Positions 6,515 through 52,276 of a DNA stretch of 64,000 nt are shown in pieces. The translations under genes were made by a program, and so were the position numbers. Positions within the stretch are counted from its first letter, which is position 1; the number at the start of each line of letters is the position of its first letter. Source of the DNA: Candidatus Sericytochromatia bacterium. GTDB taxonomy: Bacteria; Cyanobacteriota; Sericytochromatia; UBA7694. The DNA lies in NCBI GenBank assembly GCA_018780035.1, contig JADMKE010000008.1, positions 7,778 to 71,777 of the forward strand. Reading direction: 5' to 3'. The notes beneath the pieces were generated by a model. The model worked only from the letters and a program-made list of their open reading frames with translations, searched no databases and was not told the DNA's origin.

Positions 6515-8194
6515 ATGCAACGTGAAATTAACGTGCCCAAATTGGGCGATAACGTCGGCGCAGGAGAGATCACCCAGGTGCTCGTGGCAGTCGGTGAGAC
6601 CATCAGCGAAAACCAGGCTTTGATTGAAGTCGAATCCGACAAAGCAGCGGTCGAAATTCCCTCCCCCGCTGCAGGCAAAGTGGCTTCTTTGGCGGTTAAA
6701 GTGGGTGACAGTGTGCAAGAGGGCAGTTTGATCCTGGTGCTTGAATCCGCAGCGGAAACTGCTGCCGCCACGCCTGTGGAAAAACCTGTGGAAAAAGCCC
6801 CCGAAGAGAAAAGTGAGCCCGCTGTTGCAGCAACGCCAACTCCCAGCCCCTCGGTAGCAACGGGCCCAGTGGAAATGCGTGTGCCCAAACTCGGCGACAA
6901 TGTCGGAGCAGCAGAGATCACCCAATTGCTGGTGGCTGTGGGCGATGTCTTGAGCAAAGACCAGGCCGTGATGGAACTGGAATCCGACAAAGCTGCGGTC
7001 GAAATCCCTGCTCCCGCAGCGGGCAAGGTGCTCTCGCTGGCAGTCAAAATGGGAGACAAGGTCCAAGAAGGGGATTTGGTGCTGGTTTTGGAAGGTAGCA
7101 CAGATGCCAGCACAGATAGTAGCAAATCTGCTAGCGCCGGTGCTAACAAACCTGCGGCGGCATCACCGGCTGCATTACCTGCTGCATTACCAGTTGCGGC
7201 CCCTCGCTCCCAGAGCGGAGTCGAAGGGAGCGTCGAGACAGGCCCCCGCGATGTCTTGGAGCCCCTGCCCGGCAGCGCCCTGCCCGCAGCGCCCTCGGTG
7301 CGGCTCTTTGCCCGCGAATTGGGGGTCGATCTGCGCAAAGTCACGGGCACAGGCCTGCGTGGCCGCATCTCCAAAGAGGATGTCAAAGCCTGGGTCAAAG
7401 GCACCTTACAAGCCGGTCCGGCCGCGGTTTCAGCAGGCCAAACCATGACCCTGGCCACCCCCGATCTGCCAGATTTTAGCCAGTGGGGCGCAATTCACAG
7501 CGAAAAACTCAGCCCCGTGCGCCGGGCCACCGCCGCCCAAATGCACCGCGCTTGGAGCCAAATCCCGCATGTGACCCAGTTTGACCAGGCGGATATCACA
7601 GAGGTGGAGGTCTTCCGCAAGGCCCGCGCCAAACAGGTCGAAGCCGCAGGCGGCAAACTGACCGTTACCGCCATTCTGCTCAAAATTTGCGCCCTGGGTC
7701 TCAAACGCTTTCCCAAATTTAACGCCAGTCTCGATCTTAAAAACGAGCAGGTGATCTACAAAGACTATATCCATATCGGCGTGGCCGTCGACACCCCCCG
7801 GGGTCTGCTCGTTCCCGTGTTGCGCAATGTCGACAGCAAAGGCGTGACCAGCCTCTCCGTTGAATTGGGTGAGGTGGCCAAAAAGGCCCGCGACCGCAAA
7901 TTGGGCATGGATGACTTGCAAGGCGGCGGTTTCAGCATTTCCAATCTGGGCGGCCTGGGCACCACGTATTTCACCCCGATTGTGAACTGGCCCGAAGTCG
8001 CGATTCTGGGCGTGGGCCGGGCCCAAACCATGCCCGTCTGGCGCGATGGCCAATTTGTGCCCCGCCAGATCATGCCGCTCTCACTCTCGTATGACCACCG
8101 TCTCATTGACGGTGCCGACGCCGCGCGCTTCCTGCGTTTTGTCGCCGAAGCCCTCGAAACCCCGCTGATGCTGCTGATGGAAGGAGATCTGTAA
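6515..8194 (+). CDS. aceF: Dihydrolipoamide acetyltransferase (PDH E2) with two N-terminal lipoyl domains
   Basis: Two ~70-aa repeats ([20 protein letters not shown]...[31 protein letters not shown]) each carry the lipoyl-lysine DKA motif. Ala/Pro linkers and an E3-binding domain ([21 protein letters not shown]) follow. The catalytic domain carries DHR..DGA. Confidence 0.9.
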
Positions 8195-8196
8195 AC

Positions 8197-9618
8197 ATGA
8201 GTCAAGAATCGTATCAAGTGATTGTACTGGGCGGTGGCCCCGGTGGCTATGCCGCCGCATTTCTGGCCGCTGATCTGGGCCTCAAAGTCGCCCTGGTCGA
8301 AAAACGGGTCAATCCCGGTGGGGTCTGTCTCTACGAAGGCTGCATTCCCTCCAAGGCTTTTTTGCACGCCGCGGAGCTGATCAACGAAAGCCAACACGCC
8401 GCTGAGTGGGGGATTGAATTTGCCCCACCCAAAATCGACATCGACAAGCTGCGGGCCTGGAAAGACACCAAAGTCGTCAAAGGCCTGACCGGCGGTCTGG
8501 GTCAATTGGCCAAAGCCCGCAAGGTCAAATTTATCCAGGGCACGGGCACGATCCAAGATGCCCACCACCTGCAGGTCGAAACCGCAGAAGGGCCACAAAC
8601 CCTGCACTTTGAACATCTGGTTGTGGCCACGGGTTCAAGCCCCATTGTCTTGCCCTTTTTGCCCAAGTCCCCACGGGTGATGGACTCCACCGCTGCTCTG
8701 GAATTGCCAGATGTCCCCGCACGTCTGTTGGTGCTGGGTGGCGGGTATATTGGTCTGGAAATGGCCACCGTTTACGCCGCATTGGGCTCCAAGGTCACCG
8801 TGGTTGAAATGCTCGACTCGCTCTTGGCGGGGGCCGACGCCGATCTGGTCAAACCCCTGCAAAAGCGCATCGAGAAAAAACTTGAAGCGATTCTGCTCAA
8901 AACCAAAGTCACAGGCGCCAAAGAACAGGGTGAAGAGCTGCTGGTCAGCTTTGAAGGCCCCGATGGCAAAGCCTTTGAACAGACCTTCGACCGGGTGCTG
9001 GTCTCAGTCGGTCGCCGCCCCAATGGGCGTGGCATTGGCCTCGAAAACACAAAAATTGAACTCGACAAACAGGGCTTTATTCCCGTCAATTTACAGCGGC
9101 AGACGGTGGAGCCTTCGATCTACGCGATTGGCGACGTGGCCGGACAGCCGATGCTGGCCCACAAGGCCTCCCACGAAGGCCGCGTGGCCGTCGAAGCCAT
9201 AGCCGGACACAAAGTGGCCTTTGAACCTTACGCCATCCCGGCCGTGGTCTTTACCGACCCCGAGGTCGCCTGGTGTGGTTTAACCGAGCGCGAAGCCCAG
9301 GCCCAAGGCCGCAAAGTCGAAGTTGTCAAATACCCCTGGGCCGCTTCGGGCCGGGCTTTGACCCTCGATCGCACCGAAGGCCTGACCAAGCTGATTGTCG
9401 ACCCCGAAACCGAGCGCATTCTTGGCGTGGGCATTGTTGGCAAAGGGGCAGGAGAACTGATCGCAGAAGCCACCCTGGCCGTCGAAATGGCCGCCCTGGT
9501 CACCGACGTTAAACTGACCATTCACGCCCATCCGACCCTCTCAGAGACCTTTATGGAAGCTGCTGAGATGTACTTTGGGCAGAGTACCCACGTCTACAAA
9601 CCCAAGCGGAACAAATAG
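8197..9618 (+). CDS. lpdA: Dihydrolipoyl dehydrogenase (E3)
   Basis: FAD-binding GGGPGGY, redox-active disulfide GGVCLYEGCIPSK, NAD-binding GGGYIGLE and C-terminal HAHPTLSE dimerisation motif. Starts 3 nt after the aceF stop. Confidence 0.92.
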   Translation: MSQESYQVIVLGGGPGGYAAAFLAADLGLKVALVEKRVNPGGVCLYEGCIPSKAFLHAAELINESQHAAEWGIEFAPPKIDIDKLRAWKDTKVVKGLTGGLGQLAKARKVKFIQGTGTIQDAHHLQVETAEGPQTLHFEHLVVATGSSPIVLPFLPKSPRVMDSTAALELPDVPARLLVLGGGYIGLEMATVYAALGSKVTVVEMLDSLLAGADADLVKPLQKRIEKKLEAILLKTKVTGAKEQGEELLVSFEGPDGKAFEQTFDRVLVSVGRRPNGRGIGLENTKIELDKQGFIPVNLQRQTVEPSIYAIGDVAGQPMLAHKASHEGRVAVEAIAGHKVAFEPYAIPAVVFTDPEVAWCGLTEREAQAQGRKVEVVKYPWAASGRALTLDRTEGLTKLIVDPETERILGVGIVGKGAGELIAEATLAVEMAALVTDVKLTIHAHPTLSETFMEAAEMYFGQSTHVYKPKRNK

Positions 9619-9638
9619 GGTTACCAACACTTTTTACA

Positions 9639-9667
9639 GAGCAGGGCTTACGGGCCTTGCTCTTTTT
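9639..9667 (+). terminator. Rho-independent terminator after lpdA
   Basis: 9-bp stem GAGCAGGGC / GCCTTGCTC (one G-U) with 6-nt loop, followed by TTTTT (9663-9667), 20 nt after the lpdA stop. Confidence 0.6.
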
Positions 9668-9701
9668 GCTGGCATATTTTTTGTTTGTTTCAAAAATATA
9701 T

Positions 9702-9779
9702 GCCAACAAATTCATTGACAATAGATTTGTTGGCAATCATAATAAAGACAGAAAATTTGTTGACAACAAATTTGTTGGC
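9702..9779 (+). promoter_or_regulatory. Operator-like array of inverted ATTTGTTG(GC) half-sites overlapping the promoter and TSS
   Basis: GCCAACAAAT (9702-9711) and ATTTGTTGGC (9725-9734) form a 10-bp inverted repeat bracketing the -35. TTGTTGaCAACAA (9757-9769) and the perfect 14-bp palindrome CAACAAATTTGTTG (9764-9777) sit just downstream of the TSS. The motif ATTTGTTGGC recurs at 9770-9779. Confidence 0.4.
9715..9743 (+). promoter_or_regulatory. Sigma70-type promoter of the island operon
   Basis: -35 TTGACA (9715-9720), 17-nt spacer, -10 CATAAT (9738-9743). Predicted TSS ~9750, 40 nt upstream of the RelA/SpoT-like gene start. Confidence 0.45.
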
Positions 9780-9789
9780 CAAAGAGGTG

Positions 9790-10584
9790 ATGATGTCAGA
9801 TGAAATAAATACAATAGTTGAGCGGTTATTTCCCGAAAGGTTAATAGATCCTAATACTTTTGATCAATGGTGCAGAAGAATCCGCTCAGATATTTTTGGA
9901 GACGCTGCCAATCTTCTAGCTAAATTAGAGAATTGGCTCGAAGAACAAAAAGGAACTCTTAAAGCATCTGAACAGCTCAAAAGGGATTATTGGGAAATTT
10001 TTGGCGGCAATGGTGAAACGTTAATAAAAACACCACAGAGTATACGCTCGAAACTAGCTCGCGATTTCAAAACAGAGAGCATTACAGCTGAAAGAAAAAC
10101 AGAAGAGTTTCTTCGTACGAAAATATTAGAATTTAGTGATCTTGGACGGATAAGAATTGTCACTGATTTTTTTTCTGACACCAGCCTTCTAAAAGAGAAC
10201 ATGTTTGATGCAACTACCAGATTTTTACAAACTTATGAATGCCCCAAAGGAATCAAAGATTTTGTTTTTGATCCCTCAATGCGAGACGGACTGAAAGGAC
10301 ATCGGGCTTTTCAGTTTTCAGTAAGAATTCCATTAGATACAGAAACATTTGGTTTTGAGATTCAACTTATGACACGTTTGCAACACGCTTGGGACAGACA
10401 TAATCATCCTTTTTATGAATGGCAACGAGAAACCCCTAACTGGCAAGGCAATGCCAAGGCTGTTGAACTTGCTGTTAATGATTTTGCTTGCGCTGAAACA
10501 TTACATTTAGTAGATCGACAAGCCGATCAAAATTGGCAAAGTTTAAAAAATTTTCTTCAAGAGGCTAGAAGTACTGATGAATAA
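9790..10584 (+). CDS. RelA/SpoT-domain nucleotidyltransferase (small-alarmone-synthetase-like, candidate toxSAS-type effector)
   Basis: Within ORF 9685..10584 the SD AGAGGTGA lies 5-6 nt before ATG 9790 (MMSDEINT...). The synthetase-fold motifs DLGRIRIVTDFFSD (cf. DIAGIRVICYFxDD), GHRAFQFSV (cf. GYRSLHLIV) and FEIQLMTRLQHAWDRHNHPFY (cf. VEIQIRTxxMxxWAExEHKxxYK) are present. Confidence 0.75.
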   Translation: MMSDEINTIVERLFPERLIDPNTFDQWCRRIRSDIFGDAANLLAKLENWLEEQKGTLKASEQLKRDYWEIFGGNGETLIKTPQSIRSKLARDFKTESITAERKTEEFLRTKILEFSDLGRIRIVTDFFSDTSLLKENMFDATTRFLQTYECPKGIKDFVFDPSMRDGLKGHRAFQFSVRIPLDTETFGFEIQLMTRLQHAWDRHNHPFYEWQRETPNWQGNAKAVELAVNDFACAETLHLVDRQADQNWQSLKNFLQEARSTDE

Positions 10585-12055
10585 AAGTATGTATTTCAGT
10601 ATTATTATCAAAGATACATCCTCTGTCTCAAAAGGAATGGCTATTTGGATTCAATCCTCAAAAGATGAACTTCCTGGCGATAAAATTAAAGAACTTACAA
10701 AAGCGTCTCGAGAACTCAGTCTAATAGAGGGAGAGCAGCTGCAAACAGAGGTTTTAGTAGCATCCCCTACTTCTCTTGATATTCGTCCTATAAGCGAGTA
10801 TCTTTGGGGTGACGGTACACTGAATAGCTCTCGTTTGATTCGCCATCTTCAAGATTATAAATCAGGAAAAAGACCTCACCACTTTTTGCCAAGAGTGGGT
10901 ATTACCATTGTTATGGAAGAAGAGTTTATCGGTAGAAAAAGTGTCTTATCTGAACTCGAAGCCCACATTAAAGCTCATAAATCTTGTCATCTAAGGGCAC
11001 CTCGTCGCTATGGCAAATCCAGTTTACTCGGTATATTATCTACCAAATCAGATAATATAGTTATGCTGGAATTAAGTGATATGAGTACATTATCTGGATT
11101 TTTCAAGACCCTCTTAAGAGCCTGTATGCGTCATACCAAAGCCCAAGATATTCTCTTAGAAACGAAAATATTCCAATCCTGGCCAACTGAAAGTAGTCCA
11201 TCCAACTTTTCTCAAATATTCAATAAGGCCTTTGATGATTTAGAAAAAAAACACCAACACCAATTATTTAAAATAATACTTGAAACAATGGATATTTTAG
11301 CTGAAAATGGACTAGTTCTCTTTATTGATGAATTTAGTCTTTTTCTCAGGGATTTACACGAACATGACCAAGAGCAGTTAATTGTATTTCTTCAAGAGTT
11401 TCATCGACTTCGCACGAAAAAGTCTACGCCATTAGTTACCGTATTTTCAGGAAGTGCAGGGCTTTCCACCTATATGGAATTGTACGGGATGAAAGAGCTA
11501 TTTGACGACCTCATGACCGTAGATGTCTCTCCTATAAGTGCCAGTGAAGCCTACCTGCTTGCTGAAGAGTTGTTTTATGGGATGCAAAAACGTCCGATAC
11601 CAAATGCAATTGAGCGGCTAGTTGAATTTACGGGTATGGAGGAAACCATTCCTTATTTTGTACAGGCTCTGGCATCTTATACGTGTGAACAAGCGGGTTT
11701 AAGAAAGGAAATAACAACAGAAGATGTTGAAGAAGCCTATTATAATCGCCTATTGGGGCCAGCGGGAAATGTCTGTTTCCGTGATTTTATCTTGCGTGAG
11801 CGCACTTACCCTAAGGAATATCGATTGAGTGCATCCAATATACTCAAACACTTATCAAAAATGGCCCCTGCAATTGTAACGGAAGAAGACTTACAAAAGT
11901 TATGCAAAGGAGGATGTGAGTTGAAGAAACTCATGACCTGTTTGGAAGAAGATTACGATATTGTGCCAGAAGGTAGTGGCTGGCGAATGCGTTCCAAAGT
12001 AATAGCTGATCGTTGGCGACTGGGAGAACCTTGGTTGACCACTGGAGGTAAGTAA
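10577..12055 (+). CDS. P-loop ATPase of the Arch_ATPase (PF01637-like) AAA family
   Basis: FIGRKSVLSELEAHIKAHKSCHLRAPRRYGKSSLLGIL (Walker A GKSS) and VLFIDEFSLF (Walker B). The gene overlaps the upstream gene by 8 nt, consistent with translational coupling. An N-terminal ~120-aa extension of unknown function is present. Confidence 0.7.
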   Translation: MNKSMYFSIIIKDTSSVSKGMAIWIQSSKDELPGDKIKELTKASRELSLIEGEQLQTEVLVASPTSLDIRPISEYLWGDGTLNSSRLIRHLQDYKSGKRPHHFLPRVGITIVMEEEFIGRKSVLSELEAHIKAHKSCHLRAPRRYGKSSLLGILSTKSDNIVMLELSDMSTLSGFFKTLLRACMRHTKAQDILLETKIFQSWPTESSPSNFSQIFNKAFDDLEKKHQHQLFKIILETMDILAENGLVLFIDEFSLFLRDLHEHDQEQLIVFLQEFHRLRTKKSTPLVTVFSGSAGLSTYMELYGMKELFDDLMTVDVSPISASEAYLLAEELFYGMQKRPIPNAIERLVEFTGMEETIPYFVQALASYTCEQAGLRKEITTEDVEEAYYNRLLGPAGNVCFRDFILRERTYPKEYRLSASNILKHLSKMAPAIVTEEDLQKLCKGGCELKKLMTCLEEDYDIVPEGSGWRMRSKVIADRWRLGEPWLTTGGK

Positions 12056-15000
12056 TGGCTAGGCACCTCAATTATAATCCGGGCCGCGATTCGATCGAAT
12101 ACCTTGATGCGATTACACACGGAGAAAATCGTTTATATATTCTCGATCAGCTCTTGATCTCCTTGCGAGCCGAAATAGGTCGCCCCAACCATCAACATCA
12201 TCTATTAATTGGGCCCAGAGGAGCAGGAAAAACCCATTTACTCAGACTATTAACGGCAGGACGTATTCCACAAGAAGCAGGCTTGGCTAAAGCTTACTTG
12301 CCTTTGGTAATGCCAGAGGAAACATCTCTACGTACGCCAGGGGACTTACTTTTGAAATTCGTTGAACGGCTGGATAAGATTTTAAGTGATTCATCCCTTA
12401 TCCCAAGTACAGCTCAGCGCGAAGCAAGAGGAATTTGCAGCACAGCTCTCACAACAGCTAAAGCCATTCGCAACCCTCTTGAGCGCTTAAGTATCATGGC
12501 TGAAGCCTTGGATGCTGCAGCATCTACTTTAGGAAAGATTTTACTTCCGATCACTGAAAATATGAATCAAATTTTTTATCTAGGATCACAACGAAGTAGG
12601 CAGAGCACTTTAGCTGAACAATGGGCCTTACGTAGATATTTTCAAGAAACCCCTCATTTATTTTTAATTGCAGCAGCACCCAGTATTTTCGGCACAGTTG
12701 GTGATCCTGGTAAACCATTCTATGATTTTTTTCGTACCCACGAATTACAAGAACTCACCAATAATGAAGTCTTGGAGATTATTCATTTGAGGCTTCAACA
12801 AGAATTTCAAAATCCAAGTAACGATAAGCTCCGCTCTGAACGGGTTCATTGTCTACTTGAAAACTTCCATCAAAAATCCCCTCATTTAAGAGGTCTATTA
12901 ACAATTACTGGTGGACTTCCGCGTTTCACACATCTTATTTATGAAGTAATTGTTGAAACTGATGTTGATCAAGTCTTGGATACGCTCAATCATTTTCTGG
13001 ACGATTTAACTCCTTATTTTCAGACTAGGCTGGATCCTAGTATATTCCCACAAGCGGAAATGGATCTCTTGCATACTTTGGCTTTAGCCCGTGGTCCGCA
13101 ACAACCATCAGAACTTGCAGAAGAACTCTATGGGGTCGGCACCAACGAGATTTCTGAATTGTTGAATCGCTTGCAAGAACGGGGATTAGTCAAACGTGCA
13201 GGCAGACCTGGCGGAAAAGCTGTAACATGGGATCTAACTGAACCGTTATATCGGATTTGGACTCAATTTCGAAATTACCCAGATGAGAAAAATCTGTATA
13301 GATTCTTAAGTAATTTTGTATCTTTATTATTTAATATTGATGAAATAAAAAACGAAATAGATCAATTATCAGAAAAATTATCAATTTTATCAGAAAAAGA
13401 CCCTGGATGGAAACCCTATAAATCCAGGAAGAATCTTTTAGATGAGGCTTATTCAAAACTTATCTCAGAAACACAAAAACTGATAAATGATTTCATAAAA
13501 AAAATAAATAATGAAGAAACTGATTTACAAAAAACAATAAAAGAAATTCGCACAGAAAGCATAAATAACCCTAACAATATAATTTACCAATATAAGCTAG
13601 CATTGATAATTTTTAAATTAATCAGTAGCACACACGACAGTAACACTCAAAGTGAAAGTATTTTATTATTAGATGAATTAAGACAATTAAGCCATAATTT
13701 CCCTAAAGATAATTATCTAAAAGAAATATTATCTAAAAGTATTTTTAATATAATTGTAGATTTTATTAAAAATGAAGAAAATATAAAAAATTATACATCT
13801 CTAATAAATGAATTAAAAATAATGAGTGAAAAAAATACGAAAAACTTAACTATAGCAAAAGAATTCAGTAAAGCACTAGTAAATTTAACATATCATTATT
13901 CAAGAACAGAGGAAATAGATCCAATAAAAAATATTATGAATGATTTAGATATATTGAGTAAAAAATATCCTCTAGAGACATTTTTTCGTGAAAGCTTAGC
14001 TAATGCTTTTGTTAACTCAATATACATTTCAGTAATAACAAAAGATAAAAATTTATGCCTTTATTTTTTAAATGAGCTAAGAAAATTAAGTTCAAATCAC
14101 CCAAAAGAAATGATTTTGCATGAAAATCTCTCTACAGCATTGATGAACTCTATCAATGATCCTATGGACATATATGATATAAAAGATTATTTTCAGTTTT
14201 TAAATGAGTTACAGAACTTACATCAATCATATGTCAATGAAAAATCAATATTAGAAAATCTAGCAAGAGGTATTGTAAATGTCATTTCTAAACTTGGGAA
14301 GAAAAATAGAATTAATGAAGCTAATAAATTCTTAAAAAAAATAGAAGAATTAGCAAGTAAAAACCAAGAAAATAATGATTTACAATATATTTTATCTCAA
14401 TCAATTTTCAACATAATAATTTCTTTAGTTAAAAATAAAAATGTAAAAAAATCTTTAAAATACTTAGAAAAGTTGACTTTATTAAATAAAGTAGCAGTAA
14501 ATCCATTAATCCAGCACACTTTAGCAAAAGGTCTTTTTAATATAATCACAGAACTAGGAGATCTCGGCGAATTCAATATTGCGTTTAAATATTTTGAAGA
14601 ATTGCGCGAAATATCAATAAAAAATTCATTAAATTATAATATTATAGAAAATACGACAAAAGCATTAGTTAATTTAACTTATGATACTGCAAATAATAAA
14701 ATGGAAACTGAATGTTTATTATTTTTAAAAGAATTACATTTCTTGTATTTAGAACATTCTAATGAGTCATTTATACAACAAGGTTTAGCAAAAGGATTAA
14801 TCAGTGCCATTTATGGAATGATAAAAGTAGACAATTTTGATAAATATATGGTTTTATTAAATGAATTAATAACAATAAATTATAAACATTTTAATAATGA
14901 TTCTGTTCAAAAAATTACAATTCAAGGTTTTTTTAAAATAATATCTATAACAACCCGCAACTCTAACATCAGGTATTACCAAAAATTCTTAAATGCGCTA

Positions 15001-15297
15001 TTTGAATGGTTTAATCAATACTCTGATGAAAAAACCAGTGAAACCGTAAATAGTGTTCTAACAGTACATTGCATCTTATTGCTTTCACAAATGAAATCAG
15101 GAAACTCAGTCTCTGCTAAGGAGAATATGCAATGGCTGCAAACAAATATCCCGCATCAACTAACCAATCATCTTCAACCGATGATTTTAGCAATGAATAC
15201 ACTCGAAAAAGGAGAAGATCAAGCACTAGCACGTGAACCAGAAGAAATGCGACGTGTAGTTCGACTTATCTTAGAGGAGGCTGAAAAAAAACAATAA
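12055..15297 (+). CDS. STAND-like P-loop NTPase with wHTH and >=11 C-terminal TPR-like 34-aa repeats
   Basis: Start ATG overlaps the upstream stop (TAATG). Walker A LLIGPRGAGKTHLLRLL and Walker B-like HLFLIAAAP. A winged-helix segment (ELAEELYGVGTNEISELLNRLQERGLVKRAG) follows. From ~aa 420, tandem ~34-aa repeats (L.KG.FNII..L....N......YF.EL..LS..N) fill the rest, encoded by an extremely AT-rich (Asn/Lys/Ile) region at 13300-15000. Confidence 0.7.
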   Translation: MARHLNYNPGRDSIEYLDAITHGENRLYILDQLLISLRAEIGRPNHQHHLLIGPRGAGKTHLLRLLTAGRIPQEAGLAKAYLPLVMPEETSLRTPGDLLLKFVERLDKILSDSSLIPSTAQREARGICSTALTTAKAIRNPLERLSIMAEALDAAASTLGKILLPITENMNQIFYLGSQRSRQSTLAEQWALRRYFQETPHLFLIAAAPSIFGTVGDPGKPFYDFFRTHELQELTNNEVLEIIHLRLQQEFQNPSNDKLRSERVHCLLENFHQKSPHLRGLLTITGGLPRFTHLIYEVIVETDVDQVLDTLNHFLDDLTPYFQTRLDPSIFPQAEMDLLHTLALARGPQQPSELAEELYGVGTNEISELLNRLQERGLVKRAGRPGGKAVTWDLTEPLYRIWTQFRNYPDEKNLYRFLSNFVSLLFNIDEIKNEIDQLSEKLSILSEKDPGWKPYKSRKNLLDEAYSKLISETQKLINDFIKKINNEETDLQKTIKEIRTESINNPNNIIYQYKLALIIFKLISSTHDSNTQSESILLLDELRQLSHNFPKDNYLKEILSKSIFNIIVDFIKNEENIKNYTSLINELKIMSEKNTKNLTIAKEFSKALVNLTYHYSRTEEIDPIKNIMNDLDILSKKYPLETFFRESLANAFVNSIYISVITKDKNLCLYFLNELRKLSSNHPKEMILHENLSTALMNSINDPMDIYDIKDYFQFLNELQNLHQSYVNEKSILENLARGIVNVISKLGKKNRINEANKFLKKIEELASKNQENNDLQYILSQSIFNIIISLVKNKNVKKSLKYLEKLTLLNKVAVNPLIQHTLAKGLFNIITELGDLGEFNIAFKYFEELREISIKNSLNYNIIENTTKALVNLTYDTANNKMETECLLFLKELHFLYLEHSNESFIQQGLAKGLISAIYGMIKVDNFDKYMVLLNELITINYKHFNNDSVQKITIQGFFKIISITTRNSNIRYYQKFLNALFEWFNQYSDEKTSETVNSVLTVHCILLLSQMKSGNSVSAKENMQWLQTNIPHQLTNHLQPMILAMNTLEKGEDQALAREPEEMRRVVRLILEEAEKKQ

Positions 15298-15323
15298 ATT
15301 TCTCCGATTTTCCCTATTTCAAT

Positions 15324-16461
15324 TCAGGCAGCCCTATGGAAGTCATGATGATCGAAGCCGGAGGGAAGCGTTATAGTGATGAATGAAATTCCAAAGGGAT
15401 GCCTTATGGTGTTCAATTTTTTTTTCGAAAAAGAAAGCGTTTTCCGAATAATCCTGGATATGCGTTGACGAAAAGTATTATTAAGGCGCTCAATATAGCA
15501 GGTTTTTCCTTTTTCTTTTCCCACTGCTTTGTAGCGTTTCGGAGATAGGACCAGTGCATAGGCCTCCCAAAAATCTGTATGGATAAAAGCACAGCAATGC
15601 TGTCTCCATTGAATGGGTCAACGAAGCCCAGACCCGCTTGTTTTCTGCCTTGGGAGACTGGTACTCAGGGTCTTTGAGCAATGGATTCACCATTTGCGCT
15701 GCCGTACGTTTATGCGCTTGTGTGGTATAAACTGCTGCCACCGTAGCCAAGCGCTTTCGATTGCTCTTTTCACCCCGAGATAAGCGCTTTTCTAGCTTTT
15801 GGGAACGGGCTTTGTTCTGGGTCTGTGCAGTCAGACCTTCAAAACGCATGTTGACGCCCTTGCCATCAAAACTCATGACCAAATATTCTTCAGATTTGAG
15901 TTCGGGAGGCAGTGATTGGGCGTAAAACGCCTCAAAATCCACCATCGCACCCTCAACGCACTCAAGGGCTTGGCGCTTGGGAATATGCCCAGGATACAAA
16001 GGCAAAAGCTGCTCTGAGGCTGAATCGTAAGAAAGGTCAGCAACTTTGTGGCAGATTGTTTTCTGAAGCAGGAAACTGTAGCTGCTTGTCGGCAGGTTTA
16101 ACTCACTGTCGAGTGGGTGCTGAGAGCTTTGCCCATACTGGCTCAATGCGGGACGTTTGACGCCGACCTTGCCAAAGAGGGTCTGTAATTGTCGTTTGTG
16201 CAAGCGTTTGGCTGCAGGAGTTTTGGCTTGAGCGCTCAAGGTTACTTTATTGAGCTGGTCTTGAATGATCTGGCGCAGAACCTCTGGCCCTTGTGTTTTC
16301 ACATGGCTTTCGAGTTGGTAGACATCCCACTGGGGCTCCAAATGGCTACATAATTGTGTGAATTTTTCGATGGAGGCTTCAAATCCGGTCAAAGGCAGGT
16401 TATTATTGAGCATAAGTAGTTTGGTTTTTGGTTTCACCAAATACCATTTTTTTTTGCTCAT
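15324..16461 (-). mobile_element. Degenerate or frameshifted transposase gene (IS remnant)
   Basis: Two overlapping minus-strand ORFs in different frames (15490..16461, 323 aa; 15324..15524, 66 aa). The shorter contains CYIERLNNTFRQRISRIIRKTLSFSKK, resembling the C-terminus of IS1-type InsB (…[24 protein letters not shown]). The longer has a DGKGV.M / VAAVYT core. No inverted repeats were identified. Confidence 0.5.
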
Positions 16462-17983
16462 GGCTACCCCTTTCCCGCTCTACACATTGTTCTCAGGCCA
16501 AAAACCAAAAGGAACTACACCCAAAGCCAAACCCAAACTCCTGCCCTTTTTAAAAGCCGAAGATCAAGACCTCCGGGCATGGGCCTTTGACTATTTGAGT
16601 GAAAAACAGGCCTGGGAATGGTCTGAACTCTGGGCATTGCTCAACCAAGGTGATACCTGGAGTCAAAGCCGGGTCCTCAACTATTTGCCCACTGTCACCC
16701 CCTCTTCGGAAGCGGCCAAAGCGGAGTTGACTCCGTGGCTAGAAGCAAGATTGGCGCAGGCTTCGCCGGAAGAGCTATACCCCTTGAGTCAGATTCTGGC
16801 AACTTGGCAAATAAATGAACTGCTCTCGCCGTTCTTAAAGCGCTGGCAAGCGCTTTTGCAAATTGAAAAAAGCAGTTATTATCATGGCGCAATTTTTCCC
16901 CAATTGCTGTTTTGGCAGTCCCAGGCCGCACTTTCACTGTGTGAAGAGAAAGGGTTTGCAGACACATTCTGCTCAGACTGGGTCTTGGCGGGTAAATATG
17001 CCCCGGCTCAGTTTGCCACTTTTCAAAGCTGGCTTCAAAGCAAGCAAAGCCATCTGCCTTTATTGGCCCTGAAAGTGCTGAGTGAGACAAAAGTAGCAGC
17101 CCAAAGCCCGTATCTGCCCACAGTCAAAGCGTTCTTGCCCACAAATCAAGAACAACAGGTGGCCCGCTTGCAATACCTCTTTCGCTATCAGCAATACGAT
17201 TCAGCGGATTTCGAACACGTCATCAATTGGCTAAAAGGCGACGAAAATGGGCACCCTGGTTGGTCTGTGCTCAGGTATTTTCAAACCGAAGCTCTGCAAG
17301 CCCTGCTCAAGCGCTTGAATGAATTGCCCGTTTCTGTGCAAAGTGGTGTGGTGTCAGAAATTGCAGGCCGGGCAGAACCTCATTTTCAGGCAGATCTGGT
17401 CAGGTTTTTAAACCAGCCCGAGCTGGTAAAAGACGCAGCCTTGGGCCTGATTCACTTGGGAGCCCCCGAAGGCCAAAAATACATCCCCCGTTTATTGGCA
17501 GATTCAGACTCAGCGCAAGATACACTCACGTCTTTAAGTGAAATGCTCAAACAGGGCCCCTGCCCAGGTTATGCTTCACTGGCCGCTTTTTTAAAAAGTC
17601 CCCCAGATTGGGACTATAATGATTTGGATTATTATATTAGCCCAGTGCTGAGTGGCTGCGTAAAACACGACAAAACCTTTGCGGCCGAATTGCTCGCCCA
17701 CAAAGCAGAACAGGCCGAGGTTCTCAGAGAGTTCATCGACAAAGCCCTGGCGGCACATCCGGCCCAAATCGCGCCCGCATTTTTCCACAGCCAGGCAGAA
17801 ATCTTGAAAAAGAGCCTGGACGTTGAAGAAATTCTCAGCAGCCTGCATTGGCTGGGTCTCAGCGGGAATCCCGACTGGGTTCCCCTGGTCAGCCCGTTTA
17901 CGGGCGACAAAAACAAAGACATTGCCAACAAAGCCGAAGCTGTTTTAAACCAATTAAACCAACCCAAAGTCACTCAACGCTGA
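16460..17983 (+). CDS. Hypothetical alpha-helical (HEAT/ARM-like repeat) protein
   Basis: ORF 16358..17983. The ATG at 16460 (MATPFPLY...) overlaps the transposase start codon head-to-head by 2 nt. The protein is Leu/Ala-rich and helical with no catalytic motifs. Confidence 0.5.
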   Translation: MATPFPLYTLFSGQKPKGTTPKAKPKLLPFLKAEDQDLRAWAFDYLSEKQAWEWSELWALLNQGDTWSQSRVLNYLPTVTPSSEAAKAELTPWLEARLAQASPEELYPLSQILATWQINELLSPFLKRWQALLQIEKSSYYHGAIFPQLLFWQSQAALSLCEEKGFADTFCSDWVLAGKYAPAQFATFQSWLQSKQSHLPLLALKVLSETKVAAQSPYLPTVKAFLPTNQEQQVARLQYLFRYQQYDSADFEHVINWLKGDENGHPGWSVLRYFQTEALQALLKRLNELPVSVQSGVVSEIAGRAEPHFQADLVRFLNQPELVKDAALGLIHLGAPEGQKYIPRLLADSDSAQDTLTSLSEMLKQGPCPGYASLAAFLKSPPDWDYNDLDYYISPVLSGCVKHDKTFAAELLAHKAEQAEVLREFIDKALAAHPAQIAPAFFHSQAEILKKSLDVEEILSSLHWLGLSGNPDWVPLVSPFTGDKNKDIANKAEAVLNQLNQPKVTQR

Positions 17984-35651: not shown

Positions 35652-37148
35652 ATGCTAAAATCGCGTCAACTGTTCGCTCTCTCTTTGGCTTGCACTTTAA
35701 TGGCCTGCCAGACAGCTCCATTGGAAAGCCCCAACATACCTAAAAAGCAGGAAACACAGCCCCTCTCTGATACAAGCAAGCAGAATCCAGCAATTATACA
35801 ACCCTCTGCTTCACCCGTGATTGCGGCAAGCGCCAACCCAATCGTTAAAAACACACTTAGCAAATACAGTCAGGCCTTACAGGCTTATCAAAAAGAAAGC
35901 CTCAAATCCACTGTGACCATAGCCCCTGGTTTAAATACAGCTTCACTCACGGCCCCGAGCCAAAATACCGCACCGTCACCCATGCCTTCCGGAACAAGTG
36001 CGCCAACTGAACTCGGTAATAATAGTGCTTCAAACAGCAGTTCGGGGATTTTTCCTGAGCCAACTCCCGAAGACTTAAAAAAATTAATTCAACAGTCTTA
36101 TGAATTAATGCTCAAACAAGTTGCTGAATTAGAGGCAACCCAACCTCCCGAAGCCTTGGCAAAGCAACACACAAGGCTATTACAAGGCCTGAAACAAAAT
36201 AAAAGTAGAAGTGAACGATTATTAAAAGAAATCGAAGGGAAAACACTTACCGTCAGTGAGTTTCGTTCTCTTAGTGAAAAAATCATCAAAGATGAAGGTC
36301 TCTCACTGAGTGAAAATGCCAAACAAAGCCAGGAACTATCTGAACTCCAATTTGAAATCATGCGCATGGCATTGGCTGAGGAGACCCAAAGTAAATATCC
36401 GGGCAATGCTTTAGAAGAAAGTGCTTATGCACCAGCATTGATACCTATTTGGAAAAAATACATTTACGCATTAACAGACTCTTTTGTTTTAGAGAACCCA
36501 TTAAATGGGTCTCTCTATTTTCGCGAAAATGAAAAGTTAAAACAAATTCAGCCAAAGATAAATGAATTCATTCAGGCCATAGAACGTCTCAATCCGCCAA
36601 CAAAATACACAGAATTGCACTACACCTTATTGGCGCATGGCAAACAAAGTCAAACACTCATTGAATCTCTTTTAAAAAATCCCCTGTCGGTCCAAAACCC
36701 ACAGGCATTAATCAAAGAACTGTTTGGTAATTTTGAATTGCTCTACAATTTTGGCCTTGTGAGCCAGAGTAGTTATATACTCCAAAAAGAAGTCCTTTTA
36801 GACCAAACCAAAGAGTTAGAAAAACAGGCCAAAGAGCATGACATGCAAAAACTCACTGAAGCCCCCCGCTTCAAAGGTGATTTTAAAGCCTTGCGGACAA
36901 GCAGTGAGGGCATTCAGCTGACTTGGACGACCCCACCGGATGGCACAACAACACTGATTATTTATCGCAATGAGCCCGAAAAAATTTTCAAATCCCTGAC
37001 CCAAATTGCCACCCTTGAGCCAGGAACAACCAACTATTCTGATCAAGCCTCTTTAGCCAGTGGAAAAGCCTATCAATACACACTCTCTTTTCAAAATGCC
37101 AAAGGAGAAATTCTGGCGGCTTTAGAAAGTAGCCAAGTGGTGTTCTAA
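35652..37148 (+). CDS. Hypothetical lipoprotein with C-terminal FN3-like domain
   Basis: Lipobox LACTLMACQT, an S/P/T-rich linker and a helical middle region. C-terminus GIQLTWTTPPDGTTTLIIYRNEP…YQYTLSF is FN3-like. Confidence 0.6.
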   Translation: MLKSRQLFALSLACTLMACQTAPLESPNIPKKQETQPLSDTSKQNPAIIQPSASPVIAASANPIVKNTLSKYSQALQAYQKESLKSTVTIAPGLNTASLTAPSQNTAPSPMPSGTSAPTELGNNSASNSSSGIFPEPTPEDLKKLIQQSYELMLKQVAELEATQPPEALAKQHTRLLQGLKQNKSRSERLLKEIEGKTLTVSEFRSLSEKIIKDEGLSLSENAKQSQELSELQFEIMRMALAEETQSKYPGNALEESAYAPALIPIWKKYIYALTDSFVLENPLNGSLYFRENEKLKQIQPKINEFIQAIERLNPPTKYTELHYTLLAHGKQSQTLIESLLKNPLSVQNPQALIKELFGNFELLYNFGLVSQSSYILQKEVLLDQTKELEKQAKEHDMQKLTEAPRFKGDFKALRTSSEGIQLTWTTPPDGTTTLIIYRNEPEKIFKSLTQIATLEPGTTNYSDQASLASGKAYQYTLSFQNAKGEILAALESSQVVF

Positions 37149-49192: not shown

Positions 49193-49783
49193 TTAGGGGC
49201 TTGGTGTGCTGCTGGGAGTTGGGGTTGGTTCAGTGGGTTTGGAGAGATGAAGGGTGATAGCGTTTGATATGCAGTTTGGATATTTTTTTCCACAGACAGC
49301 ATCAGGTTCAGTCTTCAGGTCAAAGTTTTGTTTTCCCAACACATCACCGTTGAGGTTTCTTAGAGTCACAGCAACTTGTTTAGAATGCCCCACTCTTCTA
49401 AAAAGAAACTGATTAATATTTATAGGCTTTGAATCGTTATACTTAGTAGGCGGTTTTGTAGGAGATGAAGAGGGCGTTGTTGGAACTATCTCCTCAAATA
49501 GTCCCGAGCAAGTCCCTTCTATTGTTTGCATATTAACGACCTCTTTGACTGGCTCTCCTCGTTGTGAAGTAGGCACAAAGAAACATTTTTTTTTGACTGT
49601 TTGAGTATCCAGCTTGAGTTCAAGTTCAATGCTCTCTTTAACGGGAGGGTTTAGATCAATGCTGAGAAAAGGTCCTTCTCCATGACAACCCCCACACCCA
49701 ACTTTTTTACTTTCAGTCTCGCAGCCAATCAAAAGCCCCAAAAGTAAAATCAAAAACCCTCCCAGTATAATCTCTTGTCTCAT
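49193..49783 (-). CDS. Small Cys-motif lipoprotein with PT-rich tail (paralog A)
   Basis: Lipobox LLIGCETE, CGGCHGEGPFLSIDLNPPVKESIELELK, …KYPNCISNAITLHLSKPTEPTPTPSSTPSP*. It is a paralog of 50054..50653. Confidence 0.6.
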   Translation of the reverse strand: MRQEIILGGFLILLLGLLIGCETESKKVGCGGCHGEGPFLSIDLNPPVKESIELELKLDTQTVKKKCFFVPTSQRGEPVKEVVNMQTIEGTCSGLFEEIVPTTPSSSPTKPPTKYNDSKPININQFLFRRVGHSKQVAVTLRNLNGDVLGKQNFDLKTEPDAVCGKKYPNCISNAITLHLSKPTEPTPTPSSTPSP

Positions 49784-50053
49784 TTAATGCCTCTTAAATT
49801 TAAGTCAACAAATTAACAGATAATGAACCCGACCAGTGTTAAAAACCATCTTTTTAGCATAACATCCAATAACTGTTAACTTATCTTTCCTATGTACTTA
49901 TACCAAATGGGAGATATAATTCGCCATTAACGCATACTCATCCATGTTCGTTTAAAGCAAGGAATAACAAGGTTCGGCCATTAGTTGTTTGGCGTGTTTC
50001 CCATCATTTTGGTATTACCTTATTTGTGTGTTGATGAGATCCTTTATTAAAAT

Positions 50054-50653
50054 TTAGGGGCTTGGCGTGCTACTGGGAGTGGGCGTTGGTTCTGCTGGTT
50101 TCGATAAATGAAGGGTGACTTCTGTTGATGTGCAGTTCGGATATTTGGGACTACACCCAGGATATATTTCAGTGCTTAGCTTAAAGTTCTGCTGAGCCAA
50201 CACATCACCAGCAAGGTTTCTTAGAATTACTTGAATTTCCTTTTCTTTGATACCCCAGAAAACAAGTTCATTAATATCAATACGTTGAATGTCTTCTGGT
50301 TTCAAAAATACAGGGAGTGGCAGTTTATGGGACGAAGGTGTTGGGGATGGCGAAGGTGCTGTTGATATACTGGTGCCTGAACAATAAAAGCCCATGCCCC
50401 CCTGTATGTCATCTATTACTTTTGATGATTCCTGTGGATGGAAATTACATTTACGTGTCATGATCGTTTTTGTTTTGTCCTTAAGTTCAATCTCCACGCT
50501 TTCTTTAACAGGCGGGTCCAAACGTATATTTAAAAACTGCCCCATGCCCTGACATGGAGCACACTGCATTAGCTCTTGTTCAGATACGCCACATGAAAAT
50601 AAAAAGGTAAACAGAATACAAAGAGAACTTCGCCAAAACATCTTAAAATTCAC
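50054..50653 (-). CDS. Small Cys-motif lipoprotein with PT-rich tail (paralog B)
   Basis: Lipobox LFSCGVSE, CAPCQGMGQFLNIRLDPPVKESVEIELK, …KYPNCTSTEVTLHLSKPAEPTPTPSSTPSP*. Its 3' end (50044-50100) is near-identical in DNA to 49187-49240. Confidence 0.6.
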   Translation of the reverse strand: MNFKMFWRSSLCILFTFLFSCGVSEQELMQCAPCQGMGQFLNIRLDPPVKESVEIELKDKTKTIMTRKCNFHPQESSKVIDDIQGGMGFYCSGTSISTAPSPSPTPSSHKLPLPVFLKPEDIQRIDINELVFWGIKEKEIQVILRNLAGDVLAQQNFKLSTEIYPGCSPKYPNCTSTEVTLHLSKPAEPTPTPSSTPSP

Positions 50654-50768
50654 TTTGATACCTCACATGAACACTCCTGTTCAACCTCAATGACTATTCC
50701 TGGTTCAGTACAACTTGCGTGATCGTGACAAAGATAATGCCCGTTTGAGTGAGCAAAGCATCAGTCCC

Positions 50769-52274
50769 TTAATGCAGTCGCATCTGAAAGATGGGCGAAG
50801 CGGGTCGTTCGTTACCATGAAAATCATTCGGCTTGAACGTTATATAAACATCGCCATCTGCGTCCACATCCATATCGTTAATCATAAACAACGGCAAACC
50901 CTCTGGCATTAGATCTTTCAAGATATAACGAACCACTTTTAACTCTTGCGTTTTTAAGTTGATGGCAAATAAATAATTGCCCAATAAATAGAGTATTCCC
51001 CGCGACGGATCAATTGCAAAGGCTTCAAAATAGGGCTTTACAGGAGCACACACTTTATTCTCAGGGCAATTAGAGGGTGGGGGCAATAATCCCGGCAGTT
51101 CTTCTAGAATATGTTGGGCAGGCAGTAACCCACCTGAAATAGGTGTTCTCTTCGCTGGCTCGATCAACAAACTGTCCTTTTGAAGGCTGATCAAGGTGGT
51201 GAGCTTTCCGTCGGGGGATATTCGGCGTAAATAGGTCTCATAGATAAAAGGTTCCGAAAAATAGATATTGCCAGCACTGTCCACTTGCAATTTCTCAGGG
51301 TTCCAATAGCTTGCCTCACTTTTGAGGCCATCACGCAAAACGGGGACAGACTGTGGCTGTATCCCCTCTCCAGCGAAATCAATCGAATGACTTTTAGGCC
51401 TTCCATATGGATCAAAATCCCATTTGTATTGCACCCAATTTGTTGTTTGTGGAGTTTCTAAGAAACTTCCTGGAATACAAACGCCCATACCTATAGGGCA
51501 TTTCACAGGAAGCCCCACGGAGTCTGATCCTTCAAGTGTTTTCATTATTCCCCCCAAAGGCCCACTCTCAAAGACCGTTTCGACAGCTTTGTTACGAATG
51601 CGTTTGAACTTTTTATTATCAATCAGATAAATATCCCCATTCGGTGCCACAGTCAGGGCTGTGATCTCAGTAAAACCGGGAGAAATCAGGCTCTCGGCAC
51701 TCACCCGCAATTCATTGCTGGCGGGGCAATCTCCGGCTACCAGGGTCAAGATTCGCGGATACTTTTGAGGGTCTGTGCTGCCTTTGACAATACATTTCCC
51801 ATTGTGGGCATAGACCTCGCCTCCGTAATAACTCAAATCCCGGTTGGCTGGGCTGTAATTCAGGCCCAGAATATGGCCTGTGATCGGCGCGGGTATATTC
51901 TTTAAACCTACCAAACTCTGTGTTTGCTCTAAAAAATACACCGAAGCAGGGCTCTTCTCATTCACCGCAATTTGATTTGCATAACGTTGAAGCCCTGGTA
52001 CCACACCTTCAATGCCATCAGGAAAGAGTGGCTCAACCTTTTTGACCTGCAAAGTGGCGAAGGCATCCTCATTGGGTACAGGCGTAGGGCTGGGCAATGC
52101 AGAGGGGTGTTCTGTGGGTGTGGCAGATGGCTGTGGTGAAGGTCGCAGCGTCTCAGCGACTGAAGGCGACACCGATGGAGCGGGTATGCTCGCTCCCTGG
52201 AGCCCTTGGCAGGACACCAGACTCCAGACAGCTACCAGATAAGCGGCGGCAGGCATGTAACTGAATGTTCGCAT
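50769..52274 (-). CDS. Hypothetical secreted protein or lipoprotein (likely beta-propeller)
   Basis: Signal plus LVSCQG lipobox, P/S/T-rich linker, 501 aa. No catalytic motif recognised. Confidence 0.55.
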   Translation of the reverse strand: MRTFSYMPAAAYLVAVWSLVSCQGLQGASIPAPSVSPSVAETLRPSPQPSATPTEHPSALPSPTPVPNEDAFATLQVKKVEPLFPDGIEGVVPGLQRYANQIAVNEKSPASVYFLEQTQSLVGLKNIPAPITGHILGLNYSPANRDLSYYGGEVYAHNGKCIVKGSTDPQKYPRILTLVAGDCPASNELRVSAESLISPGFTEITALTVAPNGDIYLIDNKKFKRIRNKAVETVFESGPLGGIMKTLEGSDSVGLPVKCPIGMGVCIPGSFLETPQTTNWVQYKWDFDPYGRPKSHSIDFAGEGIQPQSVPVLRDGLKSEASYWNPEKLQVDSAGNIYFSEPFIYETYLRRISPDGKLTTLISLQKDSLLIEPAKRTPISGGLLPAQHILEELPGLLPPPSNCPENKVCAPVKPYFEAFAIDPSRGILYLLGNYLFAINLKTQELKVVRYILKDLMPEGLPLFMINDMDVDADGDVYITFKPNDFHGNERPASPIFQMRLH

Positions 52275-52276
52275 GG

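Follow-up and report, generated by a model that had tools for sequence, protein, structure and literature searches.

We describe here a three-gene cassette in a 64,000-nucleotide stretch of a Candidatus Sericytochromatia genome (contig JADMKE010000008.1; this whole stretch is referred to as the window, and positions are counted from its first letter unless another locus is named). The cassette consists of three open reading frames (ORFs) on the + strand, at 9790-10584 (264 aa), 10577-12055 (492 aa) and 12055-15297 (1080 aa), hereafter genes 1, 2 and 3. Gene 1 appears to encode a divergent small alarmone synthetase (SAS) of the RelA/SpoT type, and genes 2 and 3 encode P-loop NTPases that both carry a winged helix. 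We give roughly even chances to the reading in which the cassette is autorepressed and its two NTPases form a sensor pair, similar to nucleotide-binding leucine-rich repeat (NLR) proteins, that controls a toxic SAS effector. The evidence for it comes from the folds of the proteins, the conservation of donor-site residues in gene 1, the strict linkage of the three genes, the fast-evolving repeats of gene 3, the horizontal acquisition of the cassette and a conserved operator at its promoter. The operator is newly found here and is absent from an earlier note on this DNA, which had been made from the sequence of the window.

The three genes form a conserved unit. The earlier note had described three ORFs coupled by overlaps of 8 nt (genes 1 and 2) and 1 nt (genes 2 and 3); the overlaps and the motif strings that it quoted are all present in the translations of the window. 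For a census of gene neighbourhoods, loci were gathered from one genome per species, from metagenome contigs and by exact-protein look-ups, and their ORFs were scored with hidden Markov models of the three families. Gene 1 was present in 39 distinct loci from at least eight phyla, all of them from metagenome-assembled genomes (MAGs) or metagenomes. Gene 2 lies directly downstream of gene 1 in 35 of the 36 loci in which the contig continues, the sole exception (L044) being a weak, partial match to the RelA/SpoT homologues (RSH), and gene 3 follows gene 2 in all 29 testable loci, which bears out the conservation of the trio that the earlier note had proposed to examine. The gene order is constant and the junctions overlap or nearly abut throughout. 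The family sizes match as well, with 77 homologues of gene 1 and about 82 of gene 2.

The distribution of the cassette is rare and very patchy. It was found in 17 of 185,579 species genomes, all MAGs, and a search of 1.84 billion representative proteins gave 32 clusters of the gene 1 family at E<=1e-30. The hosts include Sericytochromatia, Beta-, Gamma- and Alphaproteobacteria, Desulfobacterota, Myxococcota, Acidobacteriota (Thermoanaerobaculia), Nitrospinota (Nitrospinae) and Thermodesulfovibrionia MAGs, among others, and members are up to 60-75% identical across phyla. The three window proteins have 100% identical counterparts, annotated as hypothetical, in a Candidatus Sericytochromatia MAG. 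Since the family occurs only in uncultured lineages, it has been missed by isolate-based defence catalogues, and other systems confined to MAGs are still to be found. We also detected frameshifted or fragmented copies of genes 1, 2 or 3 (L012 10055-13506, L023 10001-13677 and L035 423-1103), and the cassette therefore decays in some lineages.

At the level of the family profile and the structure model, and at that level only, gene 1 (9790-10584) appears to be a synthetase of the RelA/SpoT type. The earlier note had pointed to PF04607 as a check, and this check failed for the window protein, in which Pfam did not detect the family even at E<=1; searches of NCBIfam and single-sequence searches of the Protein Data Bank (PDB) with the same protein gave nothing useful. 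A 38-sequence profile of the gene 1 family matches RelP/YwaC at E 1.3e-9 and RelQ/YjbM at 4e-6, and 22 of the 38 members, the window protein not among them, individually match PF04607 at E<0.1 (best 1.2e-5). The model shows the fold of the SYNTH domain, a five-stranded sheet framed by helices.

The invariant residues of the family were mapped, through an alignment with RelP, onto the active-site set of the toxic synthetase FaRel2, which consists of R64, K66, S70, K74, R77, D90, G93, R95, Y128, E145 and Q147 (PMC11782079). Eight of these 11 residues are kept in gene 1 (K80, S84, K88, R91, D117, R122, E190 and Q192). K80, S84, K88 and R91 reproduce the triphosphate-binding set with exact spacing, D117 corresponds to the Mg-binding residue, and the E190-x-Q192 pair is retained. 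The other three are replaced: R64 by L78, G93 by R120 and Y128 by H171. At the position of L78, where the R-x-K motif normally has its Arg, family members carry varying hydrophobic residues. The D-x-x-G-x-R motif has become D-x-G-R-x-R, with an invariant R120 and the Gly one residue earlier (G119), and H171 is invariant in place of the acceptor-stacking Tyr of the G-Y-R motif. The full RelA/SpoT signature that had been claimed for gene 1 therefore holds for the fold and for eight residues, and not for the three canonical RSH residues that are replaced. The N-terminus of the protein is a helical hairpin specific to the family (aa 1-61), and a long helix of 42 residues (aa 222-263) lies at its C-terminus. 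Because the donor-site residues are kept, three canonical residues are replaced and family-specific helices are added, gene 1 seems to represent a real but divergent RSH subfamily. In PADLOC, it has a partial match to the candidate system PDC-S33 (E 1.4e-6, profile positions 76-174 of 349).

Two further observations concern this family. A second tier of proteins of about 240-290 aa (P0272-P0336) aligns with the greater part of the gene 1 profile (E 1e-23 to 1e-13); these proteins may form a sister subfamily of RSH that shares the extra helices. One locus, L014, has an extra fragment (7025-7282) that matches the first ~70 residues of the gene 1 family, 2.5 kb upstream of an intact cassette.

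Gene 2 (10577-12055) was analyzed with alignments, Pfam, AlphaFold2 and Foldseek. Its product is a P-loop NTPase whose first 95 residues form an alpha/beta domain confined to the synthetase-linked members of the family. Further along the protein are an hhGR motif (G119, R120) upstream of the Walker A motif, the Walker A motif APRRYGKS (aa 141-148, nt 10997-11020), which is invariant in orthologues as A-P-R-R-Y-G-K-[ST], the Walker B residues D251-E252 (nt 11327-11332), which read D-E-F-S in orthologues, a helical lid and a winged helix at about aa 449-481. The AlphaFold2 model, with a predicted local distance difference test score (pLDDT) of 92.6, shows the N-terminal alpha/beta domain, an AAA+-like core and the C-terminal winged helix. 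Its best structural matches in Foldseek are the archaeal ATPases 2fna (E 9e-10) and 2qen (5e-9), then RuvB, ORC, Cdc6 and CED-4; CED-4 and NRC4 rank below the archaeal ATPase_2, RuvB and ORC matches. The gene 2 profile recovers the ~82 full-length orthologues and then drops sharply to PF01637 proteins at E 1e-12 to 1e-4. Structure model and profile thus support PF01637 ("Arch_ATPase", ATPase_2) as the nearest family, in line with the name given in the earlier note; the window protein itself has no PF01637 match, and 2 of 16 orthologues do. The other Pfam matches among these orthologues are to AAA_22 (12/16) and AAA_16 (9/16), and AAA_35 was also matched.

The N-terminal module of gene 3 (aa 1 to ~440, nt 12055-13374), as delimited by alignment, Pfam, PDB profile matches and hhalign, resembles NTPases of the ORC/Cdc6 type and those of the signal transduction ATPases that have numerous domains (STAND). 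It has a Walker A motif GPRGAGKT (aa 53-60, nt 12211-12234; G-P-R-G-x-G-K-[ST]-H in the family), an invariant E168-N169 at the Walker B position, and a helical domain followed by a MarR-type winged helix (aa 333-396, nt 13051-13242). Orthologues match AAA_16 (16/16), ORC-CDC6-like (15/16) and MarR_2 (14/16) in Pfam, and MarR and ArsR winged helices and ORC4 are found among the PDB profile matches. The order of the domains, P-loop NTPase, helical domain, winged helix and repeats, is that of STAND proteins. A comparison with hhalign aligned the core of gene 2 (115-487) end to end with the gene 3 module (19-394) at E 9.5e-5. The two NTPases are therefore distant paralogues, and their domains follow one another in the same order.

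The C-terminal half of gene 3 (13651-15297) is an alpha-helical solenoid with a short tail, as judged from motif spacing and autocorrelation. The earlier note had recognised a P-loop NTPase, a winged helix and helical repeats in gene 3, all of which are found, and had taken the repeats for 34-residue tetratricopeptide repeats (TPRs). This last reading was rejected: there are at least ten tandem 44-residue repeats with the core motif L[AS]K[AG]L[FV]N[IL]I (aa 559-955), ten copies of the motif are spaced 43-45 residues apart, the autocorrelation has a single peak at lag 44, and no Pfam TPR matches at E<=1. Some distant orthologues do have canonical TPRs. The repeats evolve fast. In the closest orthologues the repeat half is 26-34% identical, against 63-75% for the NTPase module, and protein length varies from 685 to 1422 aa across orthologues. 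A recent expansion of the repeats was also considered and discarded, as the DNA has no tandem repeat. We regard the repeat half as a putative sensor domain.

Within gene 3 (12055-15297) the GC content drops sharply: it is 0.40 for the NTPase module and 0.25 for the repeat half, which is rich in Asn, Lys and Ile. No similar drop was found in the orthologues checked, the largest being from 0.60 to 0.50 (L010). One possible explanation is a separate, very AT-rich source of the repeat half; another is that its composition reflects the strong enrichment in Asn, Lys and Ile.

Membership of the Avs or NLR proteins, as the earlier note had suggested for this NTPase, was not supported. No PADLOC model for Avs or NACHT matches gene 2 or gene 3 at E<=1, and orthologues of gene 3 have weak and partial Pfam matches to nSTAND5 (7/16) and NACHT (3/16). 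The weak PADLOC matches of genes 2 and 3 to SspC, PDC-S01/S27 and mad8 (the last in a low-complexity region) were judged spurious.

The promoter region of the cassette carries an array of four copies of a 14-bp palindrome, CAACAAATTTGTTG, identified with a repeat finder at 9704-9717, 9719-9732, 9749-9762 and 9764-9777 (array 9704-9777), the fourth of which is perfect. The copies form two pairs with 15-bp phasing within each pair. The best-scoring promoter in the region 9400-15700 is a predicted sigma-70-type site at 9715-9743 (+ strand; TTGACA-17-CATAAT, 11 of 12 consensus matches). One pair of palindromes overlaps its -35 box, and the other sits between its -10 box and the Shine-Dalgarno sequence of gene 1 (GAGG, 9784-9787). 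With up to two mismatches, CAACAAATTTGTTG occurs five times in the window, where 0.66 matches are expected, and four of the five are at this promoter.

The palindrome is conserved together with the cassette. In 32 of 40 loci, matches with up to two mismatches are present in the 300 nt upstream of gene 1, mostly as two or three copies exactly 15 bp apart (the loci with such upstream copies include the window, L002, L004-L010, L012-L016, L018-L023, L028, L031-L035 and L037-L041). The density is 5.2 per kb upstream of gene 1 and 0.006 per kb elsewhere in the same loci, a ~850-fold enrichment. Hosts with G+C-rich genomes retain variants of the palindrome, such as CGACAAATTTGTCG. The cassette's own promoter is the sole promoter at which we saw this element. 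The array is probably, as a prediction from these data, the cassette's own operator. The simplest reading would be autorepression by one of the winged-helix components of the cassette. If so, the operator would be a convenient starting point for experiments on the silencing of a toxic module.

The start codon of gene 1 is likely the ATG at 9790 or the one at 9793, because GAGG lies at 9784-9787 and the orthologues align to the second Met. The corresponding NCBI record gives a protein of 275 aa (window 9757-9793), with 11 codons beyond the ATG at 9790; this longer version would begin within the operator array.

The window copy of the cassette was clearly acquired horizontally. The earlier note had described an AT-rich locus in a GC-rich backbone, and the GC content is indeed 0.57-0.60 upstream, drops to 0.38-0.42 between 10 and 13 kb and reaches 0.23-0.29 between 13 and 15 kb; the cassette itself has values of 0.37-0.40 and 0.25, against 0.55 in the flanks. 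In other hosts the GC of the cassette is mostly near that of the flanks or a few points (up to ~10) lower. The exceptionally low GC of the window copy therefore suggests a recent acquisition from an AT-rich donor. Across loci, the cassette appears as a discrete three-gene insert at unrelated chromosomal sites. Some of these sites resemble those of accessory genes: the flank of L022 has a HicAB/PemK/BrnA/PIN cluster, that of L020 a transposase and HicAB, and in L023 a phage-type integrase lies ~6 kb downstream of the decayed copy. The second half of the claim in the earlier note, that the cassette belongs to a defence island, was rejected, because flanking genes are mostly housekeeping and neither most orthologous flanks nor the rest of the window have recognisable defence genes; known defence genes were likewise not enriched around the cassette.

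Distant relatives of gene 3 were also found in two-gene modules without an adjacent SAS gene (L025/L045, L026 and L046). These pairs consist of a gene 2-like NTPase and a gene 3-like NTPase/winged-helix protein (L025 5835-9142, L045 5835-9154, L026 5853-8173, L046 252-3008), and two more loci, L024 and L047, are decayed copies of two-NTPase relatives. The gene 2-like partner matches only positions ~103-484 of the gene 2 profile, and the N-terminal ~100 residues are absent. Because this N-terminal domain co-occurs with the SAS, it is the best candidate for an adaptor that would bind the synthetase. The CAACAAATTTGTTG palindrome is absent from the relatives without a synthetase. They carry other upstream palindromes, either TGACGTACGTCA-like or ATACGATAAATTTATCGTAT, and these differences fit a DNA-binding protein encoded by the cassette itself. 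Beside the synthetase-less pair of L025/L045 there is a stretch that resembles a defence island (9698-16139), with a Type ISP restriction-modification gene (1263 aa) and HicB. The same stretch has a separate operon for a 242-aa PF04607 RelA_SpoT protein, a ParA/CbiA-like ATPase and a 204-aa protein, which could be a different toxic SAS module.

The combination looks undescribed as a system, as the earlier note had held. PADLOC 2.0 does not recognise the trio as any known system, and we found no description of it in the parts covered of the literature on toxic SAS (toxSAS), STAND NTPases, PDC-S33, operons of SAS with ATPases and conflict systems, including the main text of a 2026 STAND survey and a 2026 domain-centric defence screen. 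Several known systems share some of its features. Experiments have tied SAS genes that lie in conserved, overlapping operons to toxicity, and among the toxSAS toxicity was predicted from this layout for five validated subfamilies, including one with a three-gene operon (PMC7229694). Like the toxSAS FaRel, FaRel2, PhRel and PhRel2 (Jimmy et al. 2020), gene 1 is an SAS in a conserved, overlapping operon of the two- or three-gene kind, and it keeps the donor-site K, S, K, R, D, R and E-x-Q. The known toxSAS antitoxins are small proteins or small alarmone hydrolases (SAH hydrolases) (PMC7229694), whereas the neighbours of gene 1 are large NTPases, and neither a small antitoxin nor an SAH hydrolase is among them. 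CapRel (e.g., CapRel-SJ46) is a single polypeptide in which a C-terminal pseudo-zinc-finger domain acts as antitoxin and sensor; gene 1, in contrast, encodes a protein of its own (264 aa) and is linked to the genes of two large NTPases. Its product lacks such a domain, having one long helix at its C-terminus, and carries His in place of the acceptor Tyr. A RelA nucleotidyltransferase effector domain occurs occasionally in the vWA-MoxR-VMAP ternary systems, three-component NTP-dependent conflict systems (Kaur et al. 2020; PMC7159879). In these the RelA domain is fused to the vWA protein, and we detected no vWA, MoxR or VMAP domain in the three cassette proteins or their orthologues.

On the side of the NTPases, gene 3 has the NTPase, helical domain, winged helix and fast-evolving C-terminal helical repeats of Avs/AVAST proteins and other NLR-like STANDs, and a nucleotide-dependent logic leading from sensor to effector is plausible for both. 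Avs proteins are, however, single polypeptides with an N-terminal effector, whereas in the cassette the effector would be a separate gene and a second, paralogous NTPase stands between effector and sensor; the E-N at the Walker B position, the 44-residue repeats, the conserved DNA operator and the lack of a PADLOC Avs or NACHT match also set the cassette apart. Archaeal ATPase_2 proteins (PF01637; 2fna, 2qen) and Orc1/Cdc6 are the best relatives of gene 2 in structure and sequence. The AAA+-like core followed by a winged helix is shared too, gene 3 orthologues have ORC-CDC6-like Pfam matches, and two paralogues side by side bring to mind the heterodimers that Orc1/Cdc6 form on DNA. Unlike these families, the cassette has no replication context, and it adds the N-terminal domain of gene 2, the solenoid of gene 3 and the linkage to an SAS. 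The STAND regulators MalT and AfsR resemble the cassette in having a STAND-like NTPase, helical repeats, a DNA-binding element and a cis operator at the promoter. Their DNA-binding domain is a separate LuxR or SARP domain and their regulon is metabolic, whereas the only target found for the cassette is its own promoter and its output gene is an SAS.

On the preferred reading, the cassette would be a self-contained, horizontally mobile three-gene conflict module, probably anti-phage and of the abortive-infection type; the anti-phage function is suggested by the architecture. In the resting state, one of the winged helices would bind the 15-bp-phased palindromes over the promoter and repress the operon. 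The products of genes 2 and 3, paralogous NTPases of the ORC/Cdc6-STAND type with winged helices, would act jointly as a nucleotide-dependent switch, the variable 44-residue solenoid of gene 3 would sense a ligand derived from the invader, and the N-terminal domain of gene 2 would serve as the adaptor that either holds back or switches on the gene 1 enzyme. The effector would be gene 1, a pyrophosphotransferase of the RelA/SpoT fold that uses ATP as donor and arrests growth, through tRNA modification, through synthesis of a toxic nucleotide (for example (pp)pApp or (p)ppGpp), or through a new acceptor, which is suggested because an invariant His replaces the acceptor-stacking Tyr. We favour a conflict system because of the potentially toxic pyrophosphotransferase, the two NTPase switches, the fast-evolving repeats, the autoregulation, the patchy spread across phyla and the occasional decay. 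The cassette also behaves like an accessory gene set, with its foreign composition, the debris of insertion sequences (IS) on its flank, decayed copies (L012, L023 and L035) and, at some loci, toxin-antitoxin (TA), transposase, integrase or Type ISP neighbours.

Several observations weigh against this reading. The fold of gene 1 is closer to the non-toxic RelP and RelQ than to the known toxic SAS, three of its active-site residues are replaced as described above, and the family is acidic (median isoelectric point 5.9), with no obvious fit to tRNA binding. The genomic context gives little sign of defence: the flanks of L018 and L021 are purely housekeeping; the 114 flanking ORFs of 15 further loci are mostly housekeeping with three integrases, and their PADLOC matches are to generic kinase or Lon-type domains only; the rest of the 64-kb window has no other recognisable defence genes; and genes 2 and 3 have no convincing match to any PADLOC defence model. 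Searches of the viral contigs of IMG/VR, the plasmids of PLSDB and the phages of INPHARED returned no relatives. Finally, a two-NTPase core without an adjacent effector exists, once in a housekeeping context in Mycobacterium, and the six distant relatives examined gave no case of effector swapping on this core, only effector-less pairs or decayed copies. We keep alternatives open because of the missing defence-island signal, the effector-less relatives, the RelP/RelQ-like fold and the altered active site.

The alternative that survives best, although we consider it unlikely, is that the cassette serves physiological signalling. Gene 3 would then be a STAND regulator like MalT or AfsR, whose repeats sense an endogenous or environmental ligand. 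It would bind the promoter of its own operon and act with gene 2 to control a non-toxic synthetase, which would make (p)ppGpp or a related nucleotide to adjust growth. The similarity of gene 1 to the housekeeping RelP and RelQ, the mostly housekeeping flanks, the lack of relatives on phages or plasmids and the occurrence of synthetase-less pairs in ordinary chromosomal contexts agree with such a role, and the operator and the winged helices point to transcriptional control. However, a signalling module would hardly be expected to be so rare and patchy, to be up to 60-75% identical across phyla or to leave decayed copies. Its repeat domain is too variable for a conserved metabolite ligand, its operator is seen only at its own promoter, and the canonical residues of the GDP/GTP acceptor site are altered.

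We think it rather unlikely that the cassette is a tripartite TA or addiction module. The toxin would then be gene 1, and the role of an ATP-dependent antitoxin and autorepressor would fall to gene 2, acting through its N-terminal domain and perhaps together with gene 3; such a module would stabilise itself or a mobile element and sense no specific invader. The overlapping, TA-like operon with an SAS gene, a layout that has predicted toxicity (PMC7229694), speaks for it, as do a palindromic operator over the promoter, typical of autoregulated TA loci, and neighbours that include HicAB, PemK, BrnA and PIN modules and insertion sequences. Against it stand the size of the partners, 492-aa and 1080-aa NTPases where known toxSAS antitoxins are small or SAH hydrolases, the long and fast-diverging repeats, which are hard to explain without a role in sensing, and the absence of the cassette from plasmids (PLSDB) and phages (INPHARED, IMG/VR). 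That the main task of the ORC/Cdc6-like pair is a DNA transaction at the phased palindromes, for example initiation, partition or silencing, with the synthetase as a late accessory, is highly improbable: both NTPases do resemble Orc1/Cdc6 and archaeal ATPase_2 with C-terminal winged helices, the palindromes are phased at 15 bp, and a synthetase-less core exists with palindromes of its own, but the palindromes of the cassette are confined to its promoter, there are no replication or partition genes and no carriage by plasmids or phages, and the hypervariable repeats and the strict linkage to gene 1 would be left unexplained.

The preferred reading, an autorepressed sensor pair that controls a toxic SAS, can be carried further to a new kind of immune switch anchored on DNA. 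Heteromeric ORC/Cdc6-like NTPases would sit on the palindromes, and recognition of an invader by the solenoid would lead to release from DNA, derepression and the freeing of a His-type RelA/SpoT enzyme with an RSH reaction not described before, involving a new acceptor or a new nucleotide signal; we hold this fuller version to be quite improbable. If the cassette acts as the preferred reading proposes, it would be the first case of a RelA/SpoT-type effector under the control of a two-component NLR/ORC-like NTPase sensor, in place of a small antitoxin or a fused sensor, and both the toxSAS and the bacterial STAND repertoires would be widened. The invariant Tyr-to-His change at the acceptor site makes gene 1 a candidate for a new substrate or product.

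Upstream, the neighbours of the cassette are the genes for E2 (6515-8194) and lpdA (8197-9618). A terminator-like hairpin with a T-run (9638-9672, + strand; hairpin 9638-9663, an 11-bp stem with six GC pairs and a TTTTT tail, from a consensus scan) ends the E2-lpdA operon and, as predicted from sequence, would set the upstream boundary of the cassette. Together with the promoter at 9715-9743, it agrees with the single promoter after the lpdA terminator that had been proposed earlier. Directly 3' of the cassette lies insertion-sequence debris on the - strand (15324-16461), as expected from the transposase remnant reported in the earlier note. It consists of an IS1-like fragment (15324-15524; Pfam DDE_Tnp_IS1, E 1.2e-4 over 29 residues) and, at 15490-16461, a truncated transposase of the ISKra4 family (NCBIfam transpos_ISKra4 at E 1.3e-28 over profile positions 30-239 of 422, under the curated cut-off). 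An ORF of 541 aa with weak similarity to HEAT repeats (16358-17983) begins inside the truncated ISKra4 fragment on the opposite strand.

We also observed other patches of low GC (0.40-0.47) in the window, at 35652-37148 and 49193-57323. Their ORFs include proteins of 498, 196, 199, 501 and 317 aa without a Pfam or PADLOC match and a 1378-aa protein with a subtilase S8 domain, and the two patches may be further acquired DNA.

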